A stretch of DNA of 64,000 bases, from the NCBI RefSeq assembly GCF_033026475.1, contig NC_090205.1, positions 5,973,544 through 6,037,543 of the forward strand. Reading direction: 5' to 3'. This stretch comes from Channa argus (Eukaryota). The position numbers were made by a program, and so were the translations under genes. Under the pieces are notes generated by a model that had not been told where the DNA came from, did no database searches, and was given only the letters and a program-made list of their open reading frames with translations. This document shows positions 39,070 through 59,332 of this stretch, piece by piece (position 1 is the first letter of the stretch; each line of letters starts with the position of its first letter).

Positions 39070-39785
39070 GTAAGAGATTTTACATTTTTATTGCATCAGC
39101 TTGAATGTTGTTTCTGAACAGATGAAACATTTCATTCATATAGATAAAGATAGATCTATAGATATAGATATCGACAGATAGATGGATAGATGTGTAACAA
39201 ATTATATCTGATAAGATTAATTTAGCAGCAAGTTCCAGCACTACAGCATAACTGCATTTAATCTCAACTTTAGTTGAATTCCGTCTTACAGGTAAACAGA
39301 TGTATTTGTTGTTGGGGTTGTCAATCACACGGAGTTTAATTTACAGTGAACTACAGTTACTTTGATACACATTGAATATAATTGATGGGTTGTTGATGCA
39401 GTGTTAACAGTGGCCTTGCTTCATTTATAGTTTGGGTACATACACTTACTATTGTTGTCACCTCCACAGAAAAAAAAATCCCACAGTGCTTTTTTTTTTT
39501 TTTTTTTTTCCCACAACTCAAGTAGTGTATGTGTATTGGTCCAATAGGTGAAAGCTTTGGAATTAGGGGATCAATTTCATTAAAATTAAGTTTATTATAT
39601 GATTATAAAAATAGAAAACTTTGTGTGTTATTGACTTGGATTTGCATAGTAACAACATGTACACGTACGTGTGCTTGATTATAACGGTGCTTTGCTTATG
39701 CTAACAATCTATAGAGTACTGAACGCTTGCTATTATAGTTGTTCTTGCCACATTACAAAAGACCTGTGCTAATTGTGTTTTGCAG

Positions 39786-39888
39786 GAAGGCTACTGGGAG
39801 TTAACCACAGAACTGGGTGAATTAATAAATGTTGATCTGGATACATTTGCCAATGTGTTCCTGAAAAACAAGGGCATCAATTCTCTAG
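39786..39888 (+). CDS. parp4: parp4 exon 32 (MVP-interaction region): EGYWELTTELGELINVDLDTFANVFLKNKGINSL.
   Basis: Acceptor ttttgcag|gaa, donor tctag|gtgagg. It matches human DGFWKLTPELGLILNLNTNGLHSFLKQKGIQSLG. Confidence 0.85.
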
Positions 39889-41257: not shown

Positions 41258-41387
41258 GTGTCACGGCACGTGCAGCGATCCTGAGGTTGGTGGCAACTCT
41301 TCTGGTTCTGCAGCTGATGAGAGTGAAGAAGCTGGAAGAAGGCAAACTGCTCCGGACCCTCTTCAGTTTGGACGACTCTCAGCCCAG
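41258..41387 (+). CDS. parp4: parp4 exon 33: (G)VTARAAILRLVATLLVLQLMRVKKLEEGKLLRTLFSLDDSQP.
   Basis: Acceptor ggtgcag|gt, donor cccag|gtctgt. It is in frame with ORF 41245..41439 and matches human VKGRECLLDLIATMLVLQFIRTRLEKEGIVFKSLMKMDDPSISR. Confidence 0.85.
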
Positions 41388-41805
41388 GTCTGTGCACCAC
41401 CAGACACAACAGCATACAGAAAGTAACATAAATGACTAAGTATTGTACATTTCAATCATAAAACTAGTTTAAATATGCGGGGGTGACGTCTAATGTTAAT
41501 AAAGTGCACTCCCCTCTAAAAGCATTGGAACAGTGAGGCCAATTGGTTTATTTTCTGCTGTAGACTGAAATCAATTGGGTTTGACATTTGGAGGGGTCCT
41601 AAACGTAGCCAGGGCTACTTTACACAATTGTTACAATTCGAATTAGCCAAGTAAAGCTGTTAAAAATGCATTATTACATTATTTATCCAGAATTATAGCA
41701 GAAAGGCTTGAAATGTCAGTAGAACATGATCTGTAAGGTAAACACATGACCTTATGAAGTGTGGAGTATTTTCCTCTTTTGGTAACAACTGACATCCTCT
41801 ACCAG

Positions 41806-42013
41806 GCCTGAGCGGTGGGAGGATGTGAAAAGGGCCGTGGACTGGGTTTCCTGGGCTGACCGGCAGTACCCGAGCGCCTACAGCCGGCTGGAGTTTGGAT
41901 TGAGCTGGGAGTCCTCCACCCGTCAGCTGCTGGGCTTTGACAGCCTCCCTCCCTTCTCTCCCCTCAGGGATCTGAACCTGCAGAAAACCACAAGTCCTGT
42001 GATGGTGTACTGA
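41806..42013 (+). CDS. parp4: parp4 terminal coding exon, with stop TGA at 42011-42013: (R)PERWEDVKRAVDWVSWADRQYPSAYSRLEFGLSWESSTRQLLGFDSLPPFSPLRDLNLQKTTSPVMVY*.
   Basis: Acceptor ctaccag|g. It is in frame with ORF 41825..42013 and matches human IPWAFEAIKQASEWVRRTEGQYPSICPRLELGNDWDSATKQLLGLQPISTVSPLHRVLHYSQG*. Confidence 0.9.
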
Positions 42014-42596: not shown

Positions 42597-44202
42597 CATT
42601 TTGCTGAGCTGACAATCCAGTTTCCAGTAATACCCCTGCGACCCGAACCTGTCTTAAACACAACAACTCCACAAGACCAGCACTGTGAGGATTTTTCTAT
42701 TATTGTTATAAAAAATTCTGAGTTTTTAATCATAATATTAAACAGTCTTCACAACTAAAACACTTTTCACTTTGCACCTTTTGAGCGGCAGTGGTAAAAA
42801 TAACCGCTCATTTTATGCCCCAAAATTAAAGAGAACTAGAGCAAGAAGACATTTATCATTACAGTATGTGAATTACTGAAGTCTCCAGTAACTCACTGTT
42901 ACATTAAACACCCAGATTGTCATTGATGTGAAAGCTTTCCTACTGTCAGCTGCTCACACACACACACAAAATCAGTGACCTGGTTTCTCAAGTGCATGTA
43001 AATATAGAGAAAGGTGGTAATGCAATGAATCAGGTACAAAACTGCCTTTCACTGCAGCATTATAGACTGTAAGTTCATACAGAAGATGATGCACTCAGCT
43101 TCTGGCTGTGTACGTCAAATAAGATATAACCAGCTCAGGAAATGGTTGGTCTTTTAGTTTTAGTTTTATCTTATGTTAGTTTATCTTTTCTGGAACTGGC
43201 TGAAAGAAACTGTTTTACAGAAAGAAGAAACGCTTAACCACCTTTAAATATAGTGTATGTGCTTTGACGACATTTCATGAGTTTTGGAAATTTGAACAAA
43301 ATAGTATGTTGTTTGCATTTTTGCTTCTTCTTATTCTTTGGATTTTACACAAATGAGCACCTTCTTCAATAATACTTTTGAATAACTTCATATGTTAATG
43401 TTTGGCAACTGCTGGAGTACTGTGACCAACTGGAGACCAGAGGTTTGTTCATTTTAAGAAAGAAGTTACAGAGTTGGTGAAAATCTGCTAAATGTAATTA
43501 TTAGTTAGTTGGTGTTATTAGATGATCTTTGGAATGGTCGATATTTTTGGTGTGTGATCACAAACCAAATCAAACTTTCCTAAAATGTTAAAGTGCCTTA
43601 ATCCTTATTGTGTTTATTATCATCTTTGATTGTTAAGAAAACTTTTTTCCCCTTTTAGCTGCACTTTTATGCTGTTTTTATTAAACCTGTCAATAAAAAC
43701 TCAATAACTGATCAATGTGGTTACAGTATGTCCCTTGGCTCAGTAAGTTGACAATGAGTTTAATTTGAAGAAATGTTAAAGATATTAGATACAAAAAACA
43801 CAATTCACCAAGTGCATGTGTCAACAAAGATGCAAGTTAATAATTAACATGGTTTAGATGTGCTAGGATCTATTGAAAGCAAAAGAGGCCAACGTGCAAT
43901 TGAAATCTGAAGTTCTACTTTATATAATAATCATATTAGTTTAAGTAAAAAACTGATATTTAAAAAACATTTTAGACATTAGTTTCAGATGTGACTGCCT
44001 TTACACAGATGCAGTGTTTTAAAACTTCGGTTCAGTGCCAGATTATTATCTTGCAAACAGTTTTTGCCACCTCTAAAACTCATGACTTCCTCAGAAGTTG
44101 AAAAGGGGAAATTAAAAGCGTTGGGAGATGAATCGCTCACATATGCTGTAGTTTGAGCTGTAGAGCTGAGCCTTTAGGAAATACGTGGCATTTTTGGATG
44201 TG

Positions 44203-44272
44203 ATGGAGGAAATTTATGTGAATGTCGAACCTCAAAAACATCTGGCCCCGAGACCTTCAACAGATGAGACGG
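44203..44272 (+). CDS. C-type lectin copy A, exon 1 (cytoplasmic tail): MEEIYVNVEPQKHLAPRPSTDET(G).
   Basis: The ATG is at 44203 and the donor is acgg|gtgagt. It is paralogous to 54514-54584 in copy B. It is followed (after the transposon-bearing intron) by a signal-anchor exon. The domain order is that of type II CLEC4-like receptors. Confidence 0.55.
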
Positions 44273-44277
44273 GTGAG

Positions 44278-46831
44278 TCAATATCACCAGAGAGTGCCTT
44301 TCAACCCTCACAATACTCAAATATTTACATTTTAATTTACCATTCACTTTATGTCATGTCATAAATAGTAGACATTCAAGTATATAAGAAATATATTATC
44401 TGAGCTCCCACACTCCCCCATTTTTCAGAGCATATAAATATAAATACATAAAAGATTTTACATAAAACGTGTTTTTAAAGAAACATAATTTGCACATGTA
44501 TTTTATTCTTATTTGGAGAATAAAATTATATTTGGACACAGTTTTTTGTTTGCATGTTATTGCCCCCACACCTAGCTATTGAACAAACTGGATTATATAG
44601 GTATGATTGAATTATTATTTTAAATATTATTTTAAAATATCAAGATGACAGGGTGGATAAGCACACAACGGGGTGGACACATAAAGCACAACACAAAAAG
44701 CATGAGAAAATATGTCAATGGAACAATTATTCAACTTAAAAAAAGAAATGCAAAAATTAAATTCTCAATCACATTCATATAACCAAACATTTAGAACGGC
44801 CTGCTGTGGGGTCATGTCGTCGACTTGGAGAAATGGAGAAGAAGGCCAGAGGTGACTGGTCTTCAGCAGTGTAAAGTGCCCCTGTATGGAGAGTTGTCTG
44901 TTGGTGCGATCCTCCAACGTGGACTGCTTGAATTTCTTGGCTGTATTTGCACAAGTAATTTTCACTATAATCAATATGCAGCATGCACTCATCTGATTTT
45001 AGGGTCTCCCTGATTTTTCTGTAGGCTGTGTATTGCCATCTATATATTACGACTGTGGAGGACATTTGCCATGAGTTGTGTATTCTCATGTGTTTTGCAC
45101 AATCACGTGTTGCGGTCAGCCTCTGTGGGTGTAACAACTTATAATGGCCTAAGCCGGCAAAACATGCTGTATGACAGTTGGCCCTGCTGCTCAGATGTGT
45201 CTGTGAGTCATCTTTTTGCATATTTTTATTTTGTCGTGTGATTATTTGTTAGCAGCCTGGTTTCATACGGCTGACATCATCACGGAGAGAAAAAGACCTC
45301 ACTTCCCTCTTAATCTCCAGAGCTGCACCACTTTCTTTTTTCTTCACGGTTGCACAAAGATCCACACTGAGGGTTACATTTCTTTTTTTGGAGTAGCCAA
45401 ACGCCACTTTGTGTGTACTTCTCAAGTTTGTACTTTTTAAAATACTCCCAGAAGTCACCCTGGCAATCAGTTGTCTTTCTCTCTCAGTTTTTGCGTTTCT
45501 GTATTTTTGCCTGATGTTCTCAACCAGGGTGGTGTGAAATAGCAGGGCTCTCGTAATAGATGCCCTAACTTTTTGGGCTCTTACCAATTCCCTGACTTTT
45601 GAGTGAGGAGACACCGAAGGTTCTTGTCGCTTCATCCTCTGGTACCTCTTTTTGTATTTTTCCACTATTGTCCTGGCTTTAGCTCTGGCAGCTGTCTTTG
45701 CCTCCTTCCATTTTTTCCTTTGTGAACATTTTCCTCTCTGTGTGAGGTCATTAATAGCTTTCTTCTTGCTTGTATCTCTATCTTTTCTCCATCTCTCCCT
45801 TTCTTTCTTAAAGTATGCCTCTCTTTGTTCAGGGTTTGCATCCCGGCGTTTTGTGTATTGCCGTGCACTTTCTGCCGCACTCAGAGGCATGTCCTGAGAA
45901 CAGCAATGACTTTATGTTTTTTTAAATTACAAAACGTTATCTACAGCAGATGTTTTCTATAAAATGTAATATAAAATTTTTTATAAATTACAATATTAAC
46001 TTCAAATGAATGCTATGTCCACCCTGTCATATGTATGTCCACCCTATCGAGTCGAAGGGACCGACAGGGTGGACATTTTGGAACAACGATAGGGTGGACA
46101 TTTTGAGCTTCAATTAGCATATTATCTTACAACAAACTGTGACTATTTAAATAGTTAGTCTGGTTGTTGAAGAGAATTTGGTATATTTAAACTTACATAT
46201 TAAACTTAAATATTGTATTTTACTCACTTCTAGTGTATTTTATGCCGACAGGGTGGACATGTTAAGCTTTGGCAAAACAAGTAAGCGAACTCATATGAAT
46301 AAAATTTGTCATTTGGAAAGTCAGCAGCTCATTCACCTCAGCAGTAGAAATCCTGCCACTAAAGAGATAAAAAATCTGTTGTCCTGATGTCACTAATGGA
46401 GACAGACTTTTCTTAAAGGGGCAGATTCCGCAATACGACAGGGTGGACAACCATTCAAGGGACATGGACAACGCTATTTTTTTATTAAATAAAAATATTG
46501 TTTTTATTACAAAATGATCAATACACTAAATTTGAGTAATATCTTATTTAACAAAATATTAATAGGAAAACATTTTATTTTATTTTTATGATTTTATTCT
46601 CATTCAAATTTAATGAGCGGTGCCTGGGACATAGCAAAATAACACACATCCTTTTATACAAAACAAAAAAATATCTTGAAAATGTATCTAAAGAGCCAAG
46701 TAATGCTTCTGTTATGAATAAGAAACTTACCCTAATACAACACACCCTGTCATAGTCATTTGTATGTTAAGTTATCATGGCAAATGACTTATTTATGTTC
46801 AGGACACCAAAAGGCACAGTGATATTGATTT
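44278..46831 (-). mobile_element. ~2.56-kb DNA-transposon insertion with 10-bp terminal inverted repeats TCAATATCAC, in intron 1 of lectin copy A. It carries a frameshifted transposase-like gene on the minus strand and internal GGGTGGACA repeats.
   Basis: The left end is gag|TCAATATCACcag and the right end is cacaGTGATATTGA|tttg. Both flanks (gatgagacggg ... tttgtttgtttg) are contiguous in the paralogous copy B at ~54580-54600, which therefore acts as an empty site. Minus-strand ORFs 45249..45890 (213 aa, K/R-rich) and 44775..45221 (148 aa, ...HIDYSENYLCKYSQEIQAVHVGGSHQQTTLHTGALY...) are in different frames. There are six or more copies of gtccaccctgtc / gacagggtggac in both orientations at 46017-46450, and one at 44651. 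Confidence 0.65.
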
Positions 46832-46934
46832 GTTTGTTTGGTCAAACAGATGCTCACTGACTGTGCTTTGCCTGAATTTATATCATCAGCTTTCACTGTG
46901 GTATAACTGACTGGATTCATTGGTCTTTGCACAG

Positions 46935-47033
46935 GTTCAAGGAGCTCACAGAGGAGATTTTATGGAGCTCTTCTCTTTTTGGGGCTGTTGAGTGGTTTTC
47001 TTCTCGCTTTTCTCATCAGCCTCGGTGTCCACT
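46935..47033 (+). CDS. C-type lectin copy A, transmembrane (signal-anchor) exon: (G)SRSSQRRFYGALLFLGLLSGFLLAFLISLGVH.
   Basis: Acceptor tttgcacag|gtt, donor ccact|gtgagt. Only one frame gives a ~23-residue hydrophobic helix after basic RR residues. It is conserved in copy B (54692-54790). Confidence 0.6.
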
Positions 47034-47282
47034 GTGAGTTTAGATTTCAGTAGTATTATTAAGTATTATTTTTGCTCTGAAACATTTTTATTTAGGTATT
47101 TTTTGTCTAAGGTAAAAGTGCAGTCGTAGCTTTAGTTTTACTAAAGTTTGGGCGTTTAGACATTTCACATTTTGCATATAGTTGGAACAGATGTTGGAAA
47201 CCTAGAGCAAAACTACAACATATTTTCAATGTATTATGCTTTAGCTATTAGGACTCTAGATGTTTACCTTTTTTCGTTTTAG

Positions 47283-47488
47283 AAACATGTATCCTAAATG
47301 TATTTCAGACCGTGATTCATCACATCGTTTAGCTGCAGAGCTCTCTGCTGTTAAAGCCAATCTGACTGAGCGTTTTCAGGTCAGTGATGGTCAACTTTCC
47401 TTGATGACTGCAGAGAGAGACCAGCTGAATGCCAGCCTCATTGCAATGACTGGAGAGAGGAACAGGCTTCAGAGTTTGTCCAAACAGA
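47283..47488 (+). CDS. C-type lectin copy A, neck (coiled-coil stalk) exon: NMYPKCISDRDSSHRLAAELSAVKANLTERFQVSDGQLSLMTAERDQLNASLIAMTGERNRLQSLSKQ.
   Basis: It lies in ORF 47260..47616. The acceptor is cgttttag|a and the donor is acaga|gtgagtg. The heptad-like pattern matches CD209/CD23-type necks. The phase between the TM exon and this exon does not close directly (see findings). Confidence 0.65.
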
Positions 47489-47735
47489 GTGAGTGCTTTC
47501 CAGTACGTTGGTCTTGTTCCAATAACTTAATTTTGTTTGATTGTGTATTGATTTTTGTATCGTCTCCAATGAGAAACTGCAGTCCTAACAGAGTTTCCCT
47601 TCAGTTTTGGGATTGAGAAAGTTCACATTCTGCATGTAGCTGGAATAGATTTTGGAACCCAAATGAGAACTAGAACATATTTTCAATGCATTATACTTTA
47701 GCTATTATTACTATGAATGTTTACTTTGACTGCAG

Positions 47736-47780
47736 AGAGAGACCAGCTGAATGCCAGGCTTACGAGTTTGTCCAATCAAA
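47736..47780 (+). CDS. C-type lectin copy A, extra 45-nt in-frame neck mini-exon: (K)RDQLNARLTSLSNQ. It arose from a partial duplication of the neck exon and is absent from copy B.
   Basis: It has the acceptor tgactgcag|agagag and the donor tcaaa|gtgagtg, the same donor context as the parent exon. Its 45-nt length preserves phase 1, so inclusion or skipping both keep the frame. The upstream intron segment (ttcaatgcattatactttagctattattactatgaatgtttac) is duplicated with it. Confidence 0.4.
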
Positions 47781-48284
47781 GTGAGTGCCTTTAGTAAAAT
47801 CCTGCAAAATCCTATCATTGATGGACACATGTTCCTTCAATGATAGTTTATCATCCAGCCAGATAGCCAAATACAAGTATGATGATACTTTTTCAATAGT
47901 ATCTCCTCCTTTACTTTGTATTCCTGGATAGTTGATGTCAGCCAAGTGAGCTCTGGTGAAGCTCATATGTCTGGTCTTTTTAACATTAAGGACCAACTTT
48001 ACTTTAGTCAGAGATGACTGGAGCTGTCCAAACCAGACTCATTAACAGCCTAGAGCAGAGAGGGAGTGATTGAGTAAATGACTGTGTGTCATCTGCATAA
48101 AGGCGGATTTTTGCCTTTATAGTAATTTTGACATGTTCTAGATCAGAGCTAATTGGATTCATTGGGCATTGCATAACAAGGGCACTTACATCATGCACGG
48201 AAAATGAACTGGAAGCATATTGTAGCCTCTCAAATAGAAGCTCTGGCCGCTTCTTGAAGTTCTCTCCTTGGAAATATCTTACAG

Positions 48285-48427
48285 AGAAAACATGTCCTAC
48301 AGGATGGAGGAAGTTTAGTTGTTCCTGTTACCTCCTCTCCAGTCTGTCTGGTTCCTGGGAAAGAGGCAGAGAGGACTGCAGAGTCAAAGGAGCAGATCTG
48401 CTGGTTATAGAGAGTGATGAGGAGCAG
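48285..48427 (+). CDS. C-type lectin copy A, carbohydrate-recognition domain (CRD) exon 1: (K)KTCPTGWRKFSCSCYLLSSLSGSWERGREDCRVKGADLLVIESDEEQ.
   Basis: It is in frame with ORF 48128..48451. The acceptor is tcttacag|ag and the donor is gagcag|gtt. It has the canonical CTLD start C-P-x-x-W-x-x-F...CY-x-S and the conserved WxxAxxxC...A.L motif. The part of the ORF upstream of the acceptor is intronic. Confidence 0.75.
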
Positions 48428-48545
48428 GTTTTTGTTCAAGATTTTTATTAGACTTCTCAGATCGATCCAGTTGATTTTTGGGCTCATATTTCTTATTGTG
48501 ATGTGTCAGACTAAAGTATGATGCAAGTTTCTCTATGTTGAACAG

Positions 48546-48649
48546 ACCTTTGTTTTAGGATTAACTCAGCAACCAGCTTGGATTGGTTTGAATGATAAAG
48601 AAGTGGAGGGGACCTGGAAATGGGTAGATGGTACTTCACTGATTAAGAC
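48546..48649 (+). CDS. C-type lectin copy A, CRD exon 2: TFVLGLTQQPAWIGLNDKEVEGTWKWVDGTSLIK.
   Basis: Acceptor gttgaacag|acc, donor aagac|gtaaga. It carries the WIGL-D...EG-W-W-DG motif that defines the CTLD. Confidence 0.75.
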
Positions 48650-48821
48650 GTAAGACTTCACTTTGATTGAAAACTGTCATTACTGTTAAAATATAGTAAT
48701 AATAGAATTCATTTGTTTTTAATTGAATTTAAATGATCTGATACGGAGGGTAGTTAGACTAAACCATACAGTCACCTTTTTTTGTTGGTACATTATATCT
48801 TTTTGCTCACCGCCCTGCTAG

Positions 48822-48972
48822 GTACTGGAAGAAAGATCAGCCTGATAATGGTGGTGGAAGCCCGCTGTGGGGCGAAGAGGACTGTGCACATATCAGAAAT
48901 GAAGAAAACAACCTCTGGAATGATCTGTCATGTACAGCTTCTCTGCGTTGGATCTGTGAAAAACTACTATAA
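48822..48972 (+). CDS. C-type lectin copy A, CRD exon 3 with stop codon: (T)YWKKDQPDNGGGSPLWGEEDCAHIRNEENNLWNDLSCTASLRWICEKLL*.
   Basis: The acceptor is ctgctag|g. It has QPD (Gal/GalNAc-type) rather than EPN, and WND and the last disulfide Cys. It matches the ASGPR/MGL pattern QPDN...EDCAHF...WNDDVC...WVCE. The stop codon TAA is at 48970-48972. Confidence 0.8.
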
Positions 48973-50499
48973 GACCGTTGTGTGATTAGATCGTATATTT
49001 GTAAATGTTTTGACAGTGTCATTTATATAAATGCAGAACTTTTTAGTGACATTCTTCTACCTTTGTAAAAAAATATGTCTGCATGTGTTTGTCGACGTCT
49101 ATATTAACATGTACAGACGTGGATAAAGTTGTATTTAATGCAAAACGCATTAAAAAGAGTAACTTACATTTTTTCTGTAATATGTTGAAAATGACAAAAG
49201 TGATTAAATAAAAAGTAAAAACCAGACTTTGCCAAATAAGTGACAGTTTTTCTCCAATTTAAAGAAGCTAAATAACTGGGTACATAGTTAAAAAGGTTGG
49301 TTTGTTTTAGTTGCACAACCCTAACATACTCTGCCCCTCCACACTTCCTCTTACAGTATCACAGCTCCTTTCTCAGCACCCTGTCATATGCTTTCTCAAA
49401 ATCTACGAAGTTGCAATTCAGCTCCCTTTGACCTTCTCTGTACTTTTCTATCAGCATTACTTGAAAAAGAATAACCCAAAATCTTTTCACTGAAATATGT
49501 TGAAACTGACAGAAGTAATGAAAACAAAAAGTACAAATCTGACTTTGCTTTTAGGCTAAATAACTGGTTACATGGTTAAAAATATGTGAAGCTGAATTAG
49601 TTTGATTTAGTTTAAATATTCTGTTGAATCAGAAAAAAAAAACAACAAAGTCTCATTTTACTTCTTTTCCTTTATATTATGAGTTTCAGGTTGTTTTAAG
49701 AAAAAAATGGATTTTAAACTACTCTGAATCCCAGCAGCTAAATACCTGCATACAATGTGAAAATGCTCATATCGATCACAAAAATACTCAAACCGATCAG
49801 TGATTCTTCCGGTGTTTTTACGTTCAGCTACTGAAGAATCATTGGAAAATGTACAATTATACAAATATCAGATTAATTATCCACATCAATGTTTTTCCCC
49901 AGAGGAGGAATGACTTTTCCCTGTACAGTGTGTTATAAAATATGTGGCTCACTGTGAACTTTATGTTCACATAAAGTGTTGAGTGCACTGTATGTAAACA
50001 GTGACAACTACTTAATCAGAATCTAATTATCACTTTTCAAACTCATGGGCAAGAAAGACGGTGTTACTAATGTTACTTCCTCTTTTCTCAGTAAGCTGGC
50101 TTTTTGTTTTTGTTGTGAAGTGCGAAGCAGACGTACAAGATGCTTATAGTCCAGTGTTGTAAAATGAACTATTTGGTCAGATTCCATGGGACTAGTGATA
50201 CACAGTAATATCTATCTATGGAACCAAATGAAAAAAAACGGTTAATCAAGCTTCAAGCCTACAAGACATAAAGGCCTGGATGTCCCAGAATGTTTTGCTT
50301 CTAAACTCAGACAAAACTGAAGTCATAGTATTTGGGGCTAAAAATCTCAGAAATGTCATGTCCAACCCTTAGTGGACTTAACAACACAACATTGGTGACA
50401 TGCGATTGTCGTTGGAGACACCAAAGCTTCTGTTTGACAGAAAACAATTTGTTGGTACCTGGTAGATACTTTACTGATATATTGTCTGTACAAAGGAAT

Positions 50500-50660
50500 T
50501 AAATTAAATTTTTGTTCACAGATCCATCGCAGAGAATCTTCACAGGGCAGGTCATTCCATGCAGTGTGAGTTCTCATTTGTACACAGTCCTCTCTACCGG
50601 CCCATTGTTGTCCACCATCATTATCAGGCTGGTCCTATGTCCAGTACCTAACAGTTTATT
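50500..50660 (-). pseudogene. Minus-strand CRD exon-3-like sequence with an in-frame TAG: YWT*DQPDNDGGQQWAGREDCVQMRTHTAWNDLPCEDSLRWICEQKFNLI.
   Basis: It is the reverse complement of 50519-50660. QPD, EDC, WND and WICE are all present, but the codon pair equivalent to K-K reads aca tag. It overlaps ORF 50356..50577 (-). Confidence 0.5.
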
Positions 50661-51175
50661 GAACAAAACAAAAATGCGTTCCATAAAAAGAATTTCTCAG
50701 TGGCACCTGATAGTCTCTAGATTAATGTCTGATACATCACATCTGCAGCAGAAATAGAACAGCCAGAGCCAAACACATATCTGGCTGTTTCAGCTTAACC
50801 TGTGCTTTTATCATGAATTTCTCTTTCATGCTTTTATTTTGATACCCTGGCACTTCCTGTTTCTCACCATGTCCTCTGTGTTTTTCAGATCCTGCACTTC
50901 CTCTAGTGCATGCCCCGTCTGTCTTCGTCGCCCACAACTTCGAACCATGGTACCAGTAACAGCTGACTTTACAGATTGTCATAAATGCAACTTATGCTTG
51001 TGCTAACATAAGGATTGCAATCAGTCTTCTTCAGATCTGCCTGAGCTTTTTACGCGTAACCATGGTACCCAGACAAGACCTACCCAAGAACTGGGAGAAC
51101 ATGCAAACTCCAGATGTTACTGTATCTAAATAATTTCTTGCTAAACATTTACCATTTATGCTATTTTCTCAAAGA

Positions 51176-51305
51176 TCCAATGCAGAGTCTTTTCACAGGC
51201 CATTCAGCTCTGCAAGCTCAGTTACAATATGTGCATAGTCCTCTTCACCAATCATCTCATCTTTACCACCATTGTCAGTCTGGTTCTCCTTACAGTACCT
51301 AACCA
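51176..51305 (-). pseudogene. Second, more degenerate minus-strand copy of CRD exon 3: YCKENQTDNGGKDEMIGEEDYAHIVTELAELNGL*.
   Basis: It is the reverse complement of 51176-51305. It aligns to 50519-50660 at the DNA level. QPD has become QTD, the Cys has become Tyr, and there is a premature stop. It is a decayed tandem duplicate. Confidence 0.45.
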
Positions 51306-52822
51306 TAAGAACAACAGGACAATCGTGGTAAATATTAGATATGAATACAGTTTCTCTGTGTCACCTGACAGTCTGTAGATTGATGACTGGTTTACCAAGT
51401 GTTATTTTCAGTCAGAAGGACTGAAAATAATGACTGTAATGACTGTATTCTACAGTCAGTACCAAACACACAGGTTGTTTGTCAACCTGATGTGTGTCAT
51501 CTCCTGCATGTGGAGAGGGTCCCTGTGTCTTGATCAAGCCTGTGTGTCTCTTTTCCATATGATGCTGTATACCTCAGAGTCCTGCAACCTTAAAGACATG
51601 TTCTGATGTCTCTGCTGTAGTAGCAGGTATTTTAGGTGGAGACATCAGAGTAGCAGTCTGTAGTGGACCTTCTCAGTTCTGTTGCTGCATTATTGAGATG
51701 GTGTTTTTGACCCACTTCGGTGCAAAGCTCAGGTGACACTATCCCTGTTACTCTACAAGGGCTCAGGAGCTGAGACAACATCATTCAGCTTAAGAGAAGG
51801 AAGTAGATTGTTTGTTGCTCTTGGTTCTTCGAGTCCCCCTCGACCCTGAAACAGGAGCTGGATTGTTGGTATTAATTCTGATTGTGTTTACATACACTTC
51901 AATAACCGGGGCACTCAGAGAAATCAGGTTATTGAAGAACAGTTTACATGGACTTTAGGAACCTGGTTACTGTAAACACAAAACACAAACAAACCCCGAT
52001 TTCTCCTCCACCAAAGAAATCTGCGGGGGAAAGTGACTTATTTAGACATCTACAAGGACTTTTTTGTGTTAGTTACATTTCTGACGGACCTTAGTCAGAC
52101 TTTTTTGTAGAGTAACTAGGTTTGAGCTTCACTCCACCTCGCTCATTTGTAAAATGCTAAAAAGTGGGCATGGGGCTATAAAGGAGAAAAAGAGGGTCTC
52201 AGAGGGCGGTGGGCAGCAGATCTGCAAGAGGGAGTTGGTCAGTGTGACATGACCGGAGAAAAATGGAGAATGATTCAAAATCACAGGGCAGCTAAAGTAC
52301 ACAGGGCTCTTTTAATGTGAAGGACATTTTCCATCCAGAATCCACTACAGCAGGAACAGCCCGGTGTGGCAGGTTACATTTCACCCTACCCCTGCCCCCA
52401 GAGGGGTCTCTAGCCTGTGAATGACACCAATACAGCCCCAGTGATCAGATCAGACCAAAAGCCAAATTGAGTAGCATGGTTGAGGGCAGTAGAGGGCATT
52501 TCCTGTGCAAATTTAAAGCACATAATATAGGATTCAAATACTTTGCCCTAAAATTCCAAGATTTGGACCTGAATAAATTGACAACATTAAATACCCATAT
52601 ACATGGATTTTGAGCTGAAGAAGGTGTTTGGGGGTTTAGTTACTCTTTACCAAGTTTTGTTTTCTCCTTGAATAAGATTTTTGCTGCTTTGTCCCTCACT
52701 TGTAAATGACTAAATGTAAATGTACCAAAATTGACACTACTCAATAGCTTCTTAAAATGAAAATGTCCTTATTTAACCAGTCCTCACATTTACAGTCACA
52801 AAAGTTAAGTAAACCACTGCAC

Positions 52823-53015
52823 CTGCTCTTTGGCACCGTCTATGACCACCAGATCTGCACCTCTGCATCTGCAGTCTTCTCTGTCTTTTGTCCAAGAACC
52901 AGACTCACTGGTGAGAATATAGCAGGAAAAGCTGAACATTGTCCATCCTGCAGGACAAGTTTCTTCTGTAATAAAAAACAACAGACATTTAATGTACTGA
53001 GCAAACCTAAGCATT
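52823..53015 (-). pseudogene. Orphan C-type-lectin CRD exon 1 on the minus strand (...ETCPAGWTMFSFSCYILTSESGSWTKDREDCRCRGADLVVIDGAKEQ). It has no detectable TM or neck exons, so it is probably a gene relic.
   Basis: It is in frame with ORF 52805..53014 (-) and has the donor cag|gtgcag at its low-coordinate end. Its expected 5' exons would fall inside the copy-B duplication unit, which carries the B gene on the opposite strand. A truncated copy of this exon recurs at 60060-60160. Confidence 0.5.
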
Positions 53016-54513
53016 TAATTCAAAATCGGATTATTGAGTTCACACTTATTTTAGTTTTCTGGCATCAAGGAAATACCATGTGCCTTGTCTCTTACTGCTC
53101 ACACTCACTCTCTCCGTTCAACCTGTCCATCCTGTCCTGGTCTTCAGTCACTTTTAAGAGGCTGGCATTCAGCTGGTCCTTCTCTGCAGTCAAGAAGACA
53201 GTTTGCTCACACACACACACACACACACACAAAATCAGTGACCTGGTTTCTCAAGTGCATGTAAATATAGAGAAAGGTGGTAATGCAATGAATTAACATC
53301 GCTTCAGGTACAAAACTGCCTTTCACTGCAGCATTATAGACTTTAAGTTCATAAAGAAGATGATGCACTGCAGCTTCTGGCTGTGTACGTCAAATAAGAT
53401 ATGACCAGCACAGGAAAGGGTTGGTGTCTTATTTTTAGTTTTATCTTATGTTAGTATCTTTTCTAGAACTGGCTGAAAGAAACTGTTTTACAGAAAGAAG
53501 AAACGCTTAACCACATTTAATGAGTTTTGGAAATTTGAACAAAATACTATTTTGTTTGCGTTTTTGCTTCTTCTTATTCTTTGGTTTTTTACACAAATGA
53601 GCACCTTCTTCAATAATACTTTTGAATAACTTCATATGTTAATGTTTGGCAACAACTGCTGTGACCAACTGGAGACCAGAGGTTTGTTCATTTTAAGAAA
53701 GAAGTTACAGAGTTGGTGAAAATCTGCTAAATGTAATTATTAGTTAGTTGGTGTTATTAGATGATCTTTAGAATGGTCGATATTTTTGGTGTGTGATCAA
53801 AAACCAAATCAAACTTTCCTAAAATTTTCAAGTGCCTTAATCCTTATTGTGTTTATTATCATCTTTGATTGTTAAGAAAACTTTTTGATGCTTAGCTTTT
53901 CTTCTGCCAAGCAGCTGTGCAGCAGCTACTGCTTCGAGGAGAATTTCCCCTTTTAGCTGCACTTTTATGCTGTTTTTATAAAACCTGTCAATAAAAACTC
54001 AATAACTGATCAATGTGGTTACAGTATGTCCCTCGGCTCAGTAAGTTGATGTCTCTTTATTTGACGATCAATCAAATTTGAAAAAATGTGATAGATATTA
54101 CATGCAAAAAAAACACAATTCACTATGTTCATGTGTCAACAAAGATGCAAGTTAATAACATGGTTTAGATGTTTTAGGATGTATGGAAAGCAAAAGAGGC
54201 AAACATGCAATTGAAATCGGAAGTTCTACTTTATGTAATAATCATATTAGTTTAAGTTAAAAAACTGATATTTAAAAAACATTTTAGACATTTGTTTCAG
54301 ATGTGACTCCCTTTACACTGATGCAGTGTTTTAAAACTTAAGTTCAGTGCCAGATTATTATCTTGCAAACAATTTTTGACACCTCTGAAATTTATGACTT
54401 CCTCAGAAGTTTAAAAAGGGAAACTGTAAGCATTGGGAGATTAATCACTCGCATATGCTGCAGTGTGAGCTGCAGAACTGAGTCTTTCACAAATTCGTGG
54501 CATCCTTGGATGT

Positions 54514-54584
54514 GATGGCGGAAATTTGTATGAATGTCGAACCTCAAAACCATTTGGAACAGAGACCTTCAACAGATGAGACGG
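54514..54584 (+). CDS. C-type lectin copy B, exon 1 (cytoplasmic tail): MAEICMNVEPQNHLEQRPSTDET(G). The tyrosine of copy A is replaced by Cys.
   Basis: It is paralogous to 44203-44272 and has the donor acgg|gtttgt. The intron to the TM exon is only ~105 bp because copy B lacks the transposon. Confidence 0.45.
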
Positions 54585-54691
54585 GTTTGTTTGTTTGCTC
54601 AGACAGATGCTCACTGACTGTGCTTTGCCTGAATTTATATCATCAGCTTTCGTTGTGGTATAACTGACTGGATTCATTGGTATTTGCACAG

Positions 54692-54790
54692 GTTCAAGGA
54701 GCTCACAGAGGAGATTTTATGGAGCTCTTCTCTTTTGGGCGCTGTTGAGTCCTTTTCTTGTGGCTTTTCTCATCCGCCTCAGTGTGCACT
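54692..54790 (+). CDS. C-type lectin copy B, TM exon: (G)SRSSQRRFYGALLFWALLSPFLVAFLIRLSVH.
   Basis: It has the same acceptor and donor as copy A and the same frame. Confidence 0.55.
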
Positions 54791-55189
54791 GTGAGTCTAC
54801 ATTTTAGAAGTATAATTATTTTAGTATTATTTTTGCTCTGAAGCATTGTTTTAGGTATATTTTTACTCTTTAATCTAATACCTATTTTCCCAAATGTATG
54901 TTGCTATAAATATACATTTTCCCACCTAGGATAATGGTTGAGGATCAGGAGCATTAACATTTTAATTTTATTATTATTTAGACTGTTTGAGCTCAGGTAC
55001 AGGTTGTGAGGTCAACAACATAAAACCGCAGCCGTAGCAGAGTTTCAATAAACTTTTGGGGTTGAGAAAATTCACATTTTGCATATAGTTGGAACAGATG
55101 TTGGAACCTTAGAGCAAAACTAGAACATATTTTCAATGCAATATACTTTAGCTATTATTACTATGAATGTGTACCTTTTTCTGTTTTAG

Positions 55190-55395
55190 AAACATGTATC
55201 CTAAATGTATTTCCAACCGTGATTCATCACATCGTTTAGCTGCAGAGCTCTCTGCTGTTAAAGCCAAACTGACTGAACGTTTGCAGGCCAGTGATGGTCA
55301 ACTTTCCTTGATGAGTGCAGAGAGAGACCAGCTGAATGCCAGGCTCATCGCAATGACTGAAGAGCGGAACAGGCTTCAGACTTTGTCCAATCAAA
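55190..55395 (+). CDS. C-type lectin copy B, neck exon: NMYPKCISNRDSSHRLAAELSAVKAKLTERLQASDGQLSLMSAERDQLNARLIAMTEERNRLQTLSNQ.
   Basis: It is in frame with ORF 55167..55409. Acceptor ctgttttag|a, donor tcaaa|gtgagtg. Confidence 0.65.
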
Positions 55396-56162
55396 GTGAG
55401 TGTTTTTAGTAAAATCCTAACAGGGAGTTTCTTCAGCAGATGAGACACATGTTCTGTCAATGATAGTTTGTCATCCAGCCAAATAGCTAAACACTTGTAT
55501 GATGATGATGATACTTTTCCAACAGTATCTCCTCCTTTAGTTTGTATTCCTGAATGGTTGATGTCAGCCAAGTGAGCTCTAATGAAGGTCATATGTTTGG
55601 TCTTTTTAACAACCAGACCAAGTTTAATTCTGTCAGTGATGACTGAAGCTCATTAATAGCCTAGAGCAGAGAGGGAGTGATTGAGTAAATGACCTTGTGT
55701 CATCTGCATAAAGACGGATTTTTGCACTGTTCAGGTTTCTCCCAGTGTCATTTAAAAAAAATAAGATAGCAACCAAATAGAAACTTGAGGGATCCCATTA
55801 CAAATTGTCATAAAACCTGACTAATGTCCATCTACAACAACACATCCTACCTGTAAGATAATTTCTAAACCACTGAACGGGCAGATTCGACATGCCAATA
55901 TGTTTGAGTCTGATACTGACCTGTCAAATAGCCTTTAGTCATGAAATAATCCAGGTGTTACACAACCTTTTCCAATATAGTTAAGGCTGATTGATAATAG
56001 TCATTTTGTCATGTTGTAGATCAGAGCTAATTGGATTCATTGGGCATTGCATAACAAGTACACTTACATCATGCACAGAAAATGAACTGGAAACATATTA
56101 TAACCTCTGAAATAGAAGATCTGGCCTCTTCTTGAAGTTCTCTCCTTGGACATATCTTGCAG

Positions 56163-56305
56163 AGAAAACATGTCCTACAGGATGGAGGAAGTTTAGTTGT
56201 TCCTGTTACCTCCTCTCCAGTCTGTCTGGTTCCTGGGAAAGAGGCAGAGAGGACTGCAGAGTCAAAGGAGCAGATCTGGTGGTTATAGAGAGTGATGAAG
56301 AGCAG
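56163..56305 (+). CDS. C-type lectin copy B, CRD exon 1: (K)KTCPTGWRKFSCSCYLLSSLSGSWERGREDCRVKGADLVVIESDEEQ.
   Basis: It is in frame with ORF 56132..56392. Acceptor tcttgcag|ag, donor gagcag|gtaaga. It is 98% identical to copy A. Confidence 0.75.
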
Positions 56306-56415
56306 GTAAGATTTTTATTAGACTTTTGCTTTACCCAAGTTAAAACAATATCCTCAGATAGATCCAGTCGCTCATATTTCTATGCAGTATGATGAAGGTT
56401 TCTCTATGTTGAACA

Positions 56416-56520
56416 GACCTTTGTTTTAGGATTAACTCAGCAACCAGCTTGGATTGGTTTGAATGATAAAGAAGTGGAGGGGACCTGGAAATGGGTAGAT
56501 GGTACTTCACTGATTAAGAC
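56416..56520 (+). CDS. C-type lectin copy B, CRD exon 2: TFVLGLTQQPAWIGLNDKEVEGTWKWVDGTSLIK.
   Basis: It is identical to copy A exon 2, with the same splice sites. Confidence 0.75.
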
Positions 56521-56692
56521 GTAAGACTTCACTTTGATTGAAAACTGTCATTACTGTTAAAATATAGTAATAATAGAATTCATTTGTTTTTAATTGAATT
56601 TAAATGATCTGATACGGAGGGTAGTTAGACTAAACCATACAGTCACCTTTTTTTGTTGGTACATTATATCTTTTTGCTCACCGCCCTGCTAG

Positions 56693-56843
56693 GTACTGGA
56701 AGAAAGATCAGCCTGATAATGGTGGTGGAAGCTCACGGTGGGGTGAAGAGGACTGTGCACATATCAGAAATGAAGAAAACACCCGTTGGAATGATCTGTC
56801 ATGTACAGCTTCTCTGCGTTGGATCTGTGAAACATTAGCATAA
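56693..56843 (+). CDS. C-type lectin copy B, CRD exon 3 with stop codon: (T)YWKKDQPDNGGGSSRWGEEDCAHIRNEENTRWNDLSCTASLRWICETLA*.
   Basis: QPD...WND is retained. The C-terminal tail differs (ETLA* versus EKLL* in copy A). The stop codon TAA is at ~56841-56843. Confidence 0.75.
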
Positions 56844-58539
56844 GACCTTTGTGTGATTAGATCGTATATTTGTAAATGTTTTGACAGTGTCATTTATATA
56901 AATGCAGAAGTTTTTAGTGACATTCTTCTATGTTTGTAAAAAAATATGTCTGCATGTGTTTGCGGACGTCTATATTAACATGTACAGACGTGGATAAAAT
57001 CGTTTTGGACACATTTTTTTTCTCAAATATGTTAAAATTGTCAAAAGTAATGCAATAAAATAAGTAAAAATCTGACTTTGCTGTTGATTTTTGAGTCAAT
57101 AAAATATTTTAAATATTACAACAAAGATGAAAACCAAATATCTGACAGCTTTTCTCCAATTTAAAGAGGCTAAATAACTGGTTACATGGTTAAAAACATG
57201 TGAACAGCTGAATTAGTTTAATTTAATTTAATTTAGTTTGATTTAGTTTAAATATTCTGTTGAATCAGAAATAAAAAGCAAAGTCTCACTTTACTTCTTT
57301 TCCTTTATATTATGAGTTTCAGGTTGTTTTAAGGAAAACAGTGGGTTTTAAACTACTCTGAATCCCAGCAGCTAAATACCTGCATACAATGTGAAAATGC
57401 TCATATTGATCACAAAAATACTCAAACCGATCAGTGATTCTTCTGGTGTTTTTACTTTCAGCTACCGAAGAATCATTGGAAAATGTACAATTATACAAAT
57501 ATCAGATTAATTATCCACATCAATGTTTTTCCCCAGAGGAGGAATGAATTTTCCCTGTACAGTGTGTTATAAAATATGTGGCTCACTGTGAACTTTATGT
57601 TCACATAAAGTGTTGAGTGCACTGTATGTGAACAGTGACAACTACTTAATCAGAATCTAATTATCACTTTTCACACTCAAGTAAAGACAAGAAAGAAGGT
57701 GTTACTAATGTCATTTCCTCTCTTCTCAGTAAGCTTGCTTTTTATTTTTCTTACGAAGAGTGACGCAGAGTTGCAAGATGCACATAGTCCAGTGTTGTAA
57801 AATGAACTATTTGGTCAGATTCCATGGGACTAGTTTAAGAGTGTTTGCCTGTGATTTGTGAATGAAAAATAGTTTGTAGCGTTTCTCAGGCTTTTCTCAG
57901 TTGTCCTCTGTGTTTAAGGCAACGTTGCACGCCCCGTCTGTCTTCGTCGCCCACAACCTTGCTCCCCCTCACCTGCACCTCGTCAGCTGCTTCCCCTTTG
58001 GCATTTACCCCTCTCCACCTCCACTTGTGTGGATTAGACCCTGCATGCAGGGCCGTGGTCTTTGTGTTTCAGCCTGGTAGTGGAGGCAGCAAACCCACTA
58101 AAACGGAGACTTGTGTCCTGAGTGAGTGCAGACTGCGAGGCCCTGGCTGGGCTTCTAGGGAGTTGTCACAGTACAAGTCTCAGATACACATTATATACAC
58201 GGATATTTGGATTTAAACAAAGTTAAGCACATTTCTGCCTTACTTCAAACTCAGTGGAGATCCATCAGTCCACTTCCAAGTTCCCTCTATATCTCCGTCA
58301 CTCAAACCAATCCATGAATCCATCTTGGCAAATCCAGACAGGAATCTCTGTTTAATAAAAATAAGAGAAATCCACAATATTTATATTCTAGTTTTATCCA
58401 CATACATGCATCTTATGGCAAAGGTACATTAACAGATGACTCAAACAAAAAAAAGTGCATAAGAATCTCATAACAAGTTGATAATAGAACAGAACTTTTT
58501 TGTCATCACTGAGGACATAAATGTTACAATGGAATTTAA

Positions 58540-58710
58540 TGAGCGTGAGCAGTGGGCAGCCACAGGCTGTGGCAATGAAGCTATAGCTGAGTGTCCCACT
58601 GAAGGAGACACCTGGTGAATGGGCTGTAATTTGATCCTGCAGACCTCTCCAATCAGCCTGATGCTCTATCCACTGAGCCACAAAAACCACTACAAGCCCC
58701 AAAGTTGAAA
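58540..58710 (-). mobile_element. tRNA-derived SINE of a second family, on the minus strand.
   Basis: The minus strand reads gtggctcagtggatagagcatcaggctgattggagaggtctgcaggatcaaattacagcc... (tRNA A-box and B-box). It lies inside the spurious ORF 58394..58714 (-). Confidence 0.5.
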
Positions 58711-59220
58711 TCATTCCACTTATGGAAAAGATTTAGAAAACACTCAGGTGCATAAATCATGATTCCAATGTAACTCGAGTCCAAGTCATGTGGCTCAAGC
58801 TGCTGCCTATGACTTTTACTGTTGCTGCATTATTGAGATGGTGTTTTTGACCCACTTCGGTGCAAAGCTCAGGTGACACTATCCCTGTTACTCTACAAGG
58901 GCTCAGGAGCTGAGACAACATCATTCAGCTTAAGAGAAGGAAGTAGATTGTTTGTTGCTCTTGGTTCTTCGAGTCCCCCTCGACCCTGAAACAGGAGCTG
59001 GATTGTTGGTATTAATTCTGATTGTGTTTACATACACTTCAATAACCGGGGCACTCAGAGAAATCAGGTTATTGAGGAACAGTTTACATGGACTTTAGGA
59101 ACCTGGTTACTGTAAACACAAAACACAAACAAACCCCGATTTCTCCTCCACCACAGACTTAAATTGGAAGCCTGCTACACAGTTTTTAACTGTGTGATGG
59201 AAAATGCTGCTTTCTGACTT

Positions 59221-59332
<112 letters not shown>

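Follow-up and report, generated by a model that had tools for sequence, protein, structure and literature searches.

The stretch of DNA analysed here, a window of 64,000 nucleotides from Channa argus (NCBI RefSeq assembly GCF_033026475.1, contig NC_090205.1, positions 5,973,544 to 6,037,543 of the forward strand), very probably carries a C. argus lineage-specific tandem pair of type II receptor genes of group II (ASGR/MGL/DC-SIGN-like), of which gene A bears a tail tyrosine at residue 5, presumably for uptake and signalling, and gene B lacks it. Both genes follow the end of parp4, near position 42013, in head-to-tail order, A before B. After C. striata had split off, a unit of about 10 kb, comprising a + strand gene and antisense relics, was duplicated; the copies have since diverged, and gene conversion continues to move short tracts between them. 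In the original prediction, a type II C-type lectin receptor gene of the QPD type had been duplicated in tandem immediately 3' of parp4, and this core reading is borne out.

The upstream neighbour and the two duplication units, whose limits were taken from a blastn self-comparison and the boundary sequences, are as follows.

28900 to 42013, + strand: 3' part of parp4, the upstream neighbour, with PARP catalytic, VIT, vWA and MVP-interaction exons
42955 to 52908, + strand: duplication unit 1; left edge a (CA)n microsatellite, right edge inside an antisense CTLD exon
53218 to 60154, + strand: duplication unit 2

Pfam PARP, VIT and VWA matches fall on the parp4 open reading frames 28900-29202, 30604-30768 and 32902-33114, while 35875-42013 is occupied by a called gene that contains PF26156 (PARP4_MVP-ID), in agreement with the predicted position of parp4 directly upstream of the lectin pair; parp4 and the pair are on the same strand. 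The direct repeats 42955-50196 and 53218-57834 share 82-93% nucleotide identity, and each unit holds six coding exons on the + strand with GT-AG borders and matching phases, which confirms the tandem head-to-tail arrangement. The unit ends formerly placed at about 50.2 and 57.8 kb have to be moved outward, since the homology reaches 52908 and 60154. Both units also contain antisense lectin-domain pseudogene fragments:

50491 to 50667, - strand: CRD-exon-3-like fragment with DQPDNDGGQQWAGREDC...WND...WICE (Pfam Lectin_C, 1e-6)
51159 to 51435, - strand: degenerate CRD-exon-3-like fragment with QTD and EEDY, without WND
52808 to 53232, - strand: CRD-exon-1-like and neck-like fragments, without accompanying CRD exon 2, tail or TM exons
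58219 to 58377, - strand: CRD-exon-2-like fragment that reads WIGLSDGDIEGTWKWTDG and lies in the tail part of unit 2
60054 to 60182, - strand: CRD-exon-1-like fragment, cut off at the duplication boundary

The idea that a working lectin gene lies in antisense orientation between the copies was rejected, because no antisense tail or TM exons were found with 120 homologues at relaxed thresholds and the CRD exon set is incomplete in each unit (CRD exon 2 is missing from unit 1, CRD exon 3 from unit 2).

The chance that unit 2 arose in assembly, through a haplotype left uncollapsed or a duplicate joined wrongly, is negligible, and no point in support of such an artefact was found. A different assembly, GCA_004786185.1 (CM015721.1:5906787-5931556), is colinear with window positions 34203-58972 at 99.935% identity, has no gaps and contains both units. 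The copies themselves differ by about 6% in exons and by 10-18% in non-coding DNA (introns and flanks), are set apart by many indels including a 2.55 kb insertion, and correspond to separate RefSeq proteins. The same structure in the second assembly and the 6-18% divergence rule out an assembly duplication, and the duplication is genuine.

Gene A and the features found in its introns are laid out as follows.

44203 to 48972, + strand: gene A coding region, 248 aa, six coding exons
44203 to 44272, + strand: tail exon, MEEIYVNVEP
46935 to 47033, + strand: TM exon
47309 to 47488, + strand: neck exon
48285 to 48427, 48546 to 48649 and 48822 to 48972, + strand: CRD exons, with QPD and WND
44279 to 46828, no strand assigned: A-specific 2.55 kb block in intron 1, transposon-like, with a perfect 10-nt inverted repeat (TCAATATCAC / GTGATATTGA) at its ends
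47736 to 47780, + strand: possible neck mini-exon, 45 nt and in frame, a partial copy of the neck exon with AG/GT intact

The spliced model is 100% identical to KAF3694509.1 / XP_067371554.1, which is named 'CLEC10A/MMGL' in GenBank; the mini-exon is unused in the annotated proteins. The alignment of A with B breaks at 44274/46829 around the 2.55 kb block, for which there is no second copy within the window and no convincing target-site duplication; the block may have entered A by insertion or may have been deleted from B. In the AF2 model of A (pLDDT 83), residues 1-30 are disordered, residues 34-114 form a helix and the CRD has a pLDDT above 90.

Gene B has the following exons and an altered splice site.

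54515 to 56843, + strand: gene B coding region, 240 aa, six coding exons
54515 to 54584, + strand: tail exon, MAEICMNVEP
54692 to 54790, + strand: TM exon, with Arg52
55240 to 55395, + strand: neck exon
56163 to 56305, 56417 to 56520 and 56693 to 56843, + strand: CRD exons
55210 to 55239, + strand: intron-2 acceptor region, where tttcag|AC of A reads tttccaAC

Its spliced model is 100% identical to XP_067371556.1, named 'CD209 antigen-like protein C' in RefSeq. The CAG to CCA change forces the use of a cryptic acceptor 24 nt downstream (cgtttag|CT, the sole one in frame), by which eight codons (YRDSSHRL) are removed. The intron-1 donor is weak, GG|gtttgt instead of gtgagt, because the 2.55 kb block of A is absent here. 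As the proteins assembled from both coding sequences match Pfam Lectin_C (PF00059; E 5e-21 and 76 bits for A, E 7e-22 and 78.6 bits for B, against a cut-off of 22.6) as well as annotated Channa argus lectins, their predicted membership in the C-type lectin family holds.

Despite the overall divergence of the copies, none of the six exons contains an indel between A and B, where about nine gap openings would be expected in 747 nt; all 43 gap openings lie outside exons, about 12 per kb of non-coding DNA, in aligned stretches that total about 4.2 kb and include about 3.5 kb of non-coding sequence. The dN/dS ratio between the copies is 0.42 in the CRD, about 1.1 (1.14) in the tail plus TM and 0.65 overall, and the CRD value together with the indel-free exons indicates coding constraint on both copies. 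The CRDs had been described as about 98% identical; the measured values are lower, 385/398 nt (96.7%) and 122/128 aa (95.3%). Four of the five CRD-core substitutions flank the sugar site (SPLW/SSRW and NNLWND/NTRWND). Part of the CRD identity is due to recent gene conversion, for which the tracts are:

48520 to 48850, + strand: 100% identical to about 56391-56721 in B, covering CRD exon 2 and intron 5 and reaching into CRD exon 3; gene-conversion tract
51679 to 52908, no strand assigned: 99% identical to 58819-60154, where the remainder of the unit shows 82-93%; second probable conversion tract

The first of these, 330 bp long, was found by sliding identity. In the other assembly B differs inside it at 56427, 56428, 56430 and 56530, and the tract is a recent conversion that differs between the two assemblies. 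By its identity level the second block is probably another conversion tract; a dispersed transposon was rejected for it, as there is no further copy in the window and the block contains part of an antisense exon.

Both proteins show the type II layout, with no signal peptide, a tail, one signal-anchor TM (RR followed by a 24-residue hydrophobic stretch), a helical neck and a single C-terminal CRD. As modelled, a short disordered tail is followed by a signal-anchor helix that is predicted to run into the helical neck and by one Ca2+-type CRD with QPD/WND. In both copies the tail, TM and neck have separate exons and the CRD is spread over three, and such a six-exon layout is typical of group II receptors. 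Finer placement is less clear-cut in the databases, where the homologues bear conflicting names (CLEC10A, CD209-like C/D/E, CLEC4E-like, ASGR1-like). In the tree, A and B group with XP_067373478 in a clade confined to C. argus, Channa lectin genes form species-specific clades, and the Channa chromosome that carries A and B has several further paralogues; an exact-protein look-up found no genomic context on record for B and XP_067373478.

The tails differ as predicted, MEEIYVNVEP in A and MAEICMNVEP in B. Tyr5, which in A stands in a YxxPhi context (Y5-V-N-V), and Asn7 of the M-E-E-I-Y-x-N-V start are at least 90% conserved among 82 relatives, the tyrosine being present in 106/119 homologues, and B (Y5C) is an exception. 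Because these residues are conserved across the family, the tyrosine is not peculiar to A, and the event that needs explanation is its loss in B. In ASGR1 (YQDL) and CLEC10A (YENF), Tyr5 is needed for internalisation and signalling as an endocytic/hemITAM motif, and YENF of CLEC10A has itself been described as a hemITAM (PMC7404283). The A-type Tyr5 occupies the same position, which is the best mammalian analogy and lends support to the predicted internalisation motif. YVNV had also been called the classical Grb2-SH2 consensus; pYxN is a Grb2 SH2 motif (PMC6435016), and the sequence of A, with its conserved Asn7, would be compatible with it. An ITIM reading of the A tail was rejected, position -2 being Glu. 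The kinase Syk prefers Leu or Ile at +3, and the residue at this position in A is Val. A literature search on the motif string, teleost hemITAM lectins and Channa lectins returned nothing specific to the lectin family described here.

Among known systems, ASGR1/ASGR2 and CLEC10A (MGL) share with the fish genes the type II topology, helical neck, single C-terminal CRD, QPD/WND, the Glu and His of EDCAH, a 10-residue loop between QPD and EDC, and a tyrosine at residue 5 in a YxxPhi context. They differ in that the fish genes have no Trp at QPD+2, carry the Gly-rich stretch before the aromatic residue rather than after it, and have a much shorter neck (about 60 residues); given the species-specific clades and inconsistent names of the fish genes, we would not claim 1:1 orthology. 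A further likeness is to the teleost CD209-like, CLEC4E-like and DC-SIGN-like group II expansions, where the same architecture, an M-E-E-I-Y-x-N-V start and a QPDNGGGDPxWGEEDC loop recur in hundreds of percomorph homologues, and in which B is among the few members without Tyr5. CLEC9A (MHEEEIYTSL, to be compared with MEEIYVNV), CLEC-2 and Dectin-1 similarly have acidic residues and then a single YxxPhi hemITAM near the N-terminus, but their group V domains have no Ca2+/sugar sites, and they carry Leu at +3 instead of the Val or Ile found here, where Asn is invariant at +2. The characterised fish DC-SIGN, that of largemouth bass (PMC11084180), has EPN/WYD, in contrast to QPD/WND in A and B. Paired receptors such as DCIR/DCAR, and Mincle with FcRgamma, likewise comprise adjacent related genes, one with a tail tyrosine motif and the other without it and with a TM arginine near the exoplasmic end; they differ from A and B in that the motif of A is not an ITIM, the CRDs are QPD rather than EPN, and the TM Arg is not conserved in a B-type subfamily.

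By analogy with ASGR1 and CLEC10A, the neck of A would oligomerise and its CRD would bind a galactose-type sugar (3-/4-OH equatorial/axial) via Ca2+ site 2, while the family-wide E-E-I-Y5-x-N7-V motif would direct clathrin/AP-2 uptake and, when phosphorylated, SH2 signalling of a hemITAM-like or Grb2-type (pYxN) kind. B, whose CRD is intact, would by itself be impaired in both endocytosis and signalling because Tyr5 is lost.

The sugar specificity is one point on which another explanation has to be weighed. The predicted strings QPDNGGG, EDCAHI, WND and WICE are present in both copies, the Cys, WIGL and WND/WIC residues do not vary across the 82 aligned sequences, as expected of a long-form CTLD fold, and in B none of the six Cys or the Ca2+ ligands has been lost, nor have QPD and WND. 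The loop reads QPDNGGGS..WGEEDC in A and B alike. QPD/WND and the Ca2+ site 2 Glu align with QPD...EDC...WND of the Gal-binding MBP-A mutants, and the 10-residue loop from QPD to EDC aligns without gaps with their ASGR-type QPDDWYGHGLGGGEDC, although its composition differs, with GGG first. The His after EDCA corresponds to a feature linked to GalNAc preference (His257 of ASGR1, His286 of CLEC10A; PMC7404283). The Gal/GalNAc configuration proposed at the outset is therefore matched in QPD, WND, Glu, His and loop length; it is not matched in the galactose-stacking Trp at QPD+2, since the two residues after QPD are Asn (+1) and Gly (+2), both here and in 93/94 relatives, and for this reason galactose specificity is not assured. 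The CRDs might instead be mannose-type, bind mixed sugars or have non-carbohydrate ligands, which we regard as somewhat unlikely. Besides the missing Trp, this would fit the closeness of the Mincle, SRCL and DC-SIGN folds, just behind those of the ASGR1 and CLEC10A CRDs, as well as a fish DC-SIGN-like CRD with EPN that is inhibited by both mannose and galactose, which suggests that motif rules are loose in teleosts (PMC11084180). On the other hand, apart from the conserved residues and the exact ASGR loop length, the nearest solved folds of the predicted model are those of the Gal/GalNAc receptors ASGR1 and CLEC10A (TM 0.90-0.91, 38-41% identity), and the aromatic residue at QPD+8, a Trp here and conserved as an aromatic in 87/94 relatives (family consensus QPD-N-G-G-G-D-P-x-W-G-E-EDC), could take over the stacking.

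The fate of B is the other such point. It is unlikely that B is a decaying duplicate heading towards a pseudogene, in which Y5C, the TM and the splice changes are neutral degeneration, even though Y5C abolishes a tyrosine that about 90% of relatives retain, the intron-1 donor and intron-2 acceptor have deteriorated with a loss of eight residues, dN/dS is raised in the tail plus TM and overall, and the gene is uncalled in the older GenBank annotation of GCA_004786185.1. Against decay stand an open 240-codon frame, the intact CRD residues, the lack of exon indels, the low dN/dS of the CRD, and a RefSeq protein-coding model with exactly the same junctions, including the shifted one of intron 2. 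With a dN/dS of about 1.1 in its tail and TM, B may still be losing function rather than specialising. ASGR2 (UniProt P07307) has Phe5 and pairs with ASGR1, which has Tyr5. B as a specialised partner, either a Tyr-less subunit that hetero-oligomerises with A via the neck, as in ASGR2, or an 'activating' counterpart coupled through R52 to an FcRgamma/DAP12-type adaptor, as in Mincle and DCAR, is quite unlikely in our estimate. Mincle does couple to FcRgamma via a TM arginine (PMC11624271) and offers a precedent, and B has not only lost Tyr5 but also acquired Arg52, which stands four residues inside the exoplasmic end of its TM helix. The substitutions flanking the sugar site also recall paired receptors with shifted ligand preference, and TM charges occur in four of about 10 genuine Tyr-less homologues compared with seven of about 107 Tyr-bearing ones, but this weak link amounts to about two independent events, the cichlid sequences being one lineage and the counts being uncorrected for phylogeny. 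Several Tyr-bearing relatives carry a TM charge too, an Arg at so short a distance from the membrane edge needs no partner, as it can snorkel, and adaptor pairing is drawn by analogy with other receptors. To the same low degree we would entertain A and B as a young teleost paired receptor set in the ASGR/MGL-like QPD lineage, with Tyr5 in A and its replacement by a TM Arg plus four changed residues near the sugar site in B, acting via an FcRgamma/DAP12-type adaptor or an A/B hetero-oligomer; gene conversion would then keep the rest of the CRDs matched.

The lineage-specific tandem pair is an ordinary duplicate within a large teleost family, the loss of the tail tyrosine in B being its one mildly unusual trait: both genes are already annotated in RefSeq, and teleost genomes routinely show tandem, species-specific expansion of group II lectin receptors. 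Its modest interest lies in the unstudied N-terminal E-E-I-Y-x-N-V motif shared across the percomorph family, which is position-equivalent to the Tyr5 signal of ASGR1 and CLEC10A. With nearly identical CRDs, A and B provide a natural Tyr-plus/Tyr-minus comparison that is convenient for tests of this motif in fish. Moreover, as conversion between A and B differs between the two assemblies, RNA-seq and association studies of snakehead immunity should heed it when reads are assigned to the paralogues.

Self-comparison of the 40-64 kb part of the window revealed colinear direct repeats (42955-50196 and 53218-57834, 82-93% identity), each of which contains a six-exon gene, here called A and B, that we modelled from plus-strand frames and splice signals. 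The duplicated lectin gene of the original prediction was thus confirmed.

Exons of the two lectin genes
44203-44272, 46935-47033, 47309-47488, 48285-48427, 48546-48649, 48822-48972, plus strand: gene A, 248 aa
54515-54584, 54692-54790, 55240-55395, 56163-56305, 56417-56520, 56693-56843, plus strand: gene B, 240 aa

Every string named in that prediction (QPDNGGG, EDCAHI, WND, WICE and the tails EEIYVNVEP and AEICMNVEP) was found, and its core interpretation of the locus is supported. Both proteins score well over the threshold of Pfam Lectin_C, and their best matches are annotated C. argus lectin receptors: the A model is 100% identical to KAF3694509.1 / XP_067371554.1, and the B model to XP_067371556.1, 'CD209 antigen-like protein C'. 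RefSeq already contains the two genes, and a 196-aa isoform of A in which exon 1 of the three-exon C-type lectin domain (CRD) is skipped is annotated too. The placement downstream of parp4 was likewise borne out, as the end of a called gene that carries the PARP4 MVP-interaction domain falls at ~42013 of the window, and further parp4 domains lie upstream.

ORFs at 28.9, 30.6 and 32.9 kb: parp4 PARP catalytic, VIT and vWA domains (profile matches)

GCA_004786185.1, an older and separate assembly, includes both units: its segment CM015721.1:5906787-5931556 matches 34203-58972 of the window with 99.935% identity and zero gaps. Furthermore, the exons of A and B are 94.4% identical and their introns, which differ by many indels, 75-94%, except for one identical intron (intron 5); this divergence is too large for uncollapsed haplotypes. 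An assembly duplication is therefore ruled out.

The units start where predicted (42.9 and 53.2 kb), but instead of ending at 50.2 and 57.8 kb they reach 52908 and 60154. Their left edges lie on (CA)n/(TG)n microsatellites (42945-42968 and 53195-53235), which may have mediated unequal exchange, and their right edges lie within an antisense lectin exon. The tails of both units (50491-53232 and 58219-60182) contain minus-strand C-type lectin fragments.

Repeat units and antisense lectin pieces
42955-52908: repeat unit 1, carrying A
53218-60154: repeat unit 2, carrying B
52808-53232, minus strand: neck-like and CRD-exon-1-like pieces, unit 1
51159-51435, minus strand: degenerate CRD-exon-3-like piece, unit 1
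50491-50667, minus strand: good CRD-exon-3-like piece, unit 1
60054-60182, minus strand: truncated CRD-exon-1-like piece, unit 2
58219-58377, minus strand: CRD-exon-2-like piece, unit 2

The two antisense sets are mutually complementary and each incomplete, CRD exon 2 being absent from that of unit 1 and CRD exon 3 from that of unit 2, and an antisense exon for the tail or the transmembrane segment (TM) is detectable in neither unit. A third, antisense lectin gene is thereby ruled out, and the fragments are relics of a former tail-to-tail neighbour. A 93-bp segment also occurs at opposite ends of the window in inverted orientation (62935-63027 and 2515-2606, 86% identity); it probably represents a dispersed repeat with no connection to the lectin genes.

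The CRD exons of A and B are identical at 385/398 nt (96.7%) and 122/128 aa (95.3%), so that the high similarity originally noted holds, though its figure of ~98% was slightly too high; the full proteins share 222 of 248 residues with B read in the frame of A. Read in this way (the actual intron-2 acceptor of B lies 24 nt downstream), all six exons are equal in length. All 43 gap openings in the ~4.2 kb of aligned segments (~3.5 kb non-coding) fall outside exons; at the aligned-segment rate ~9 indels would be expected in the 747 coding bases, and none was observed. Both copies have thus been under coding constraint over most of the period since they were duplicated. The dN/dS values (CRD 0.42, neck 0.58, tail plus TM 1.14) are based on few sites, and none is significant. 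Four CRD substitutions adjoin the sugar site, namely P213S and L214R (QPDNGGGS-PL/SR-WGEEDC), and N229T and L230R immediately before WND; SSRW and NTRW are common to B and a third close paralogue, XP_067373478.

Identity between the copies is uneven. A 330-bp tract (48520-48850) covering CRD exon 2, intron 5 in full and the beginning of CRD exon 3 is 100% identical, whereas the adjoining intron 4 is only ~75% identical. Inside this tract, B of GCA_004786185.1 differs from the window at 56427, 56428, 56430 and 56530 and reads FVSE in place of FVLG, relatives showing Ser. The two assemblies show 16 differences, six of them concentrated in and around CRD exon 2 of B (56364-56530), where B is less A-like in GCA_004786185.1 than in the window. 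The tract, broken in the other assembly with the relatives' Ser state, is thus the product of gene conversion of B by A, the extent of which is not the same in the two assemblies. Probably a second conversion tract is the ~99% identical block 51679-52908 / 58819-60154, which is broken up in unit 2 by a 180-bp (TG)n-containing insertion (59190-59337) and has no further copy within the window.

Intron 1 measures 107 nt in B vs 2662 nt in A. The gap corresponds to a 2.55 kb block present in A intron 1 only (44279-46828), with a perfect 10-nt inverted repeat at its ends (TCAATATCAC / GTGATATTGA) and numerous ATGTCCACCCTGTC inverted repeats in its interior. The block resembles a transposon, although neither a target-site duplication nor, within the window, a second copy was found. 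The intron-1 donor is GG/gtttgt in B and GG/gtgagt in A, and the intron-2 acceptor tttcag of A has become tttcca in B, whose sole in-frame acceptor lies downstream, with the loss of YRDSSHRL; these unusual junctions are exactly those of the RefSeq B protein. Within A, part of the neck exon is also duplicated in frame over 45 nt, with intact AG and GT signals (47736-47780; KRDQLNARLTSLSNQ). This partial copy could serve A as an alternative neck-repeat exon; longer-necked relatives exist, and no annotated isoform uses it.

The AlphaFold2 model of A (82-sequence alignment; mean pLDDT 83) comprises a disordered tail (1-30), a single long helix of TM plus neck (34-114) and a confidently folded CRD. 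In a Foldseek search of the PDB, the CRDs of ASGR1 and CLEC10A ranked best (TM 0.90-0.91, 38-41% identity), with Mincle, SRCL, ASGR2 and DC-SIGN marginally behind; sequence comparison puts pufferfish Mincle (9kpl), CLEC10A, Mincle, ASGR2 and DC-SIGN among the best single-domain PDB matches. The predicted Gal/GalNAc configuration holds in part. A and B share with the ASGR type QPD, WND, the Glu of EDC and the His of EDCAH; over the second half of the CRD, the alignment to Gal-binding MBP-A mutants carrying the ASGR loop (QPDDWYGHGLGGGEDC) is gap-free, and the loop hence has the same length of 10 residues. On the other hand, the ASGR type has at QPD+2 a Trp, which stacks on galactose, while A and B have Gly. 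The loop consensus in 94 relatives is QPD-N-G-G-G-D-P-x-W-G-E-EDC, and the aromatic residue at +8 (87/94) may replace the stacking Trp.

The tails differ as originally described, but Tyr5 is not a speciality of A: 106/119 homologues begin M-[ED]-[ED]-I-Y, 97 have Y-x-N, and Y5 and N7 each reach 90% conservation or more across the 82 aligned sequences. B (Y5C) is one of ~10 genuine exceptions to a family-wide feature. The Tyr occupies the same position in ASGR1 (YQDL) and CLEC10A (YENF), whose internalisation and signalling need Tyr5, in a motif called endocytic and hemITAM (PMC7404283). The Y-V-N-V of A fits by sequence both readings originally proposed, as YxxPhi and as a Grb2 SH2 site by the pYxN rule (PMC6435016); an ITIM is ruled out, position -2 being Glu.

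B has also acquired S52R in the TM helix, four residues short of its exoplasmic end, together with L39W, G40A, G44P, L47V and G54S. As Mincle couples to FcRgamma via a TM arginine (PMC11624271), a minority reading is that B, with Tyr5 lost and an arginine gained, might be a paired receptor with A or its ASGR1/ASGR2-like partner. TM charge occurs in 4 of the ~10 Tyr-less homologues vs 7 of ~107 Tyr-bearing ones, but the Tyr-less cases stem from about two independent events, the only lineage besides B to combine both changes being a cichlid subgroup. The four members of this subgroup (P0007, P0015, P0019, P0111) have long necks, start with MEEISA.AES (Tyr to Ser), and in three of the four carry Arg in the TM helix (LLLTRFV).

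A neighbour-joining tree groups A and B with XP_067373478 in a clade confined to C. argus, whose sister is a C. striata trio, so the duplication is lineage-specific or was homogenised in this lineage. Further paralogues map to the same chromosome, including one ~0.7 Mb off, so that the family is spread along the chromosome arm.

CM015721.1:6620209-6642611, ~0.7 Mb downstream: P0045, 'CD209 antigen-like protein C / DC-SIGN-related protein 2', 247 aa, MEEIYANVE

Percomorph homologues number in the hundreds, under inconsistent automatic names. A and B are an ordinary, already annotated, lineage-specific tandem duplicate within a large teleost receptor family, whose pattern is typical of the birth-and-death evolution of immune lectins. 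The value of the locus lies in the Tyr5-x-Asn7 motif, which is shared across the family and lost in B, in the rearrangement of the QPD loop, in the inter-assembly difference in gene conversion and in the antisense relics.
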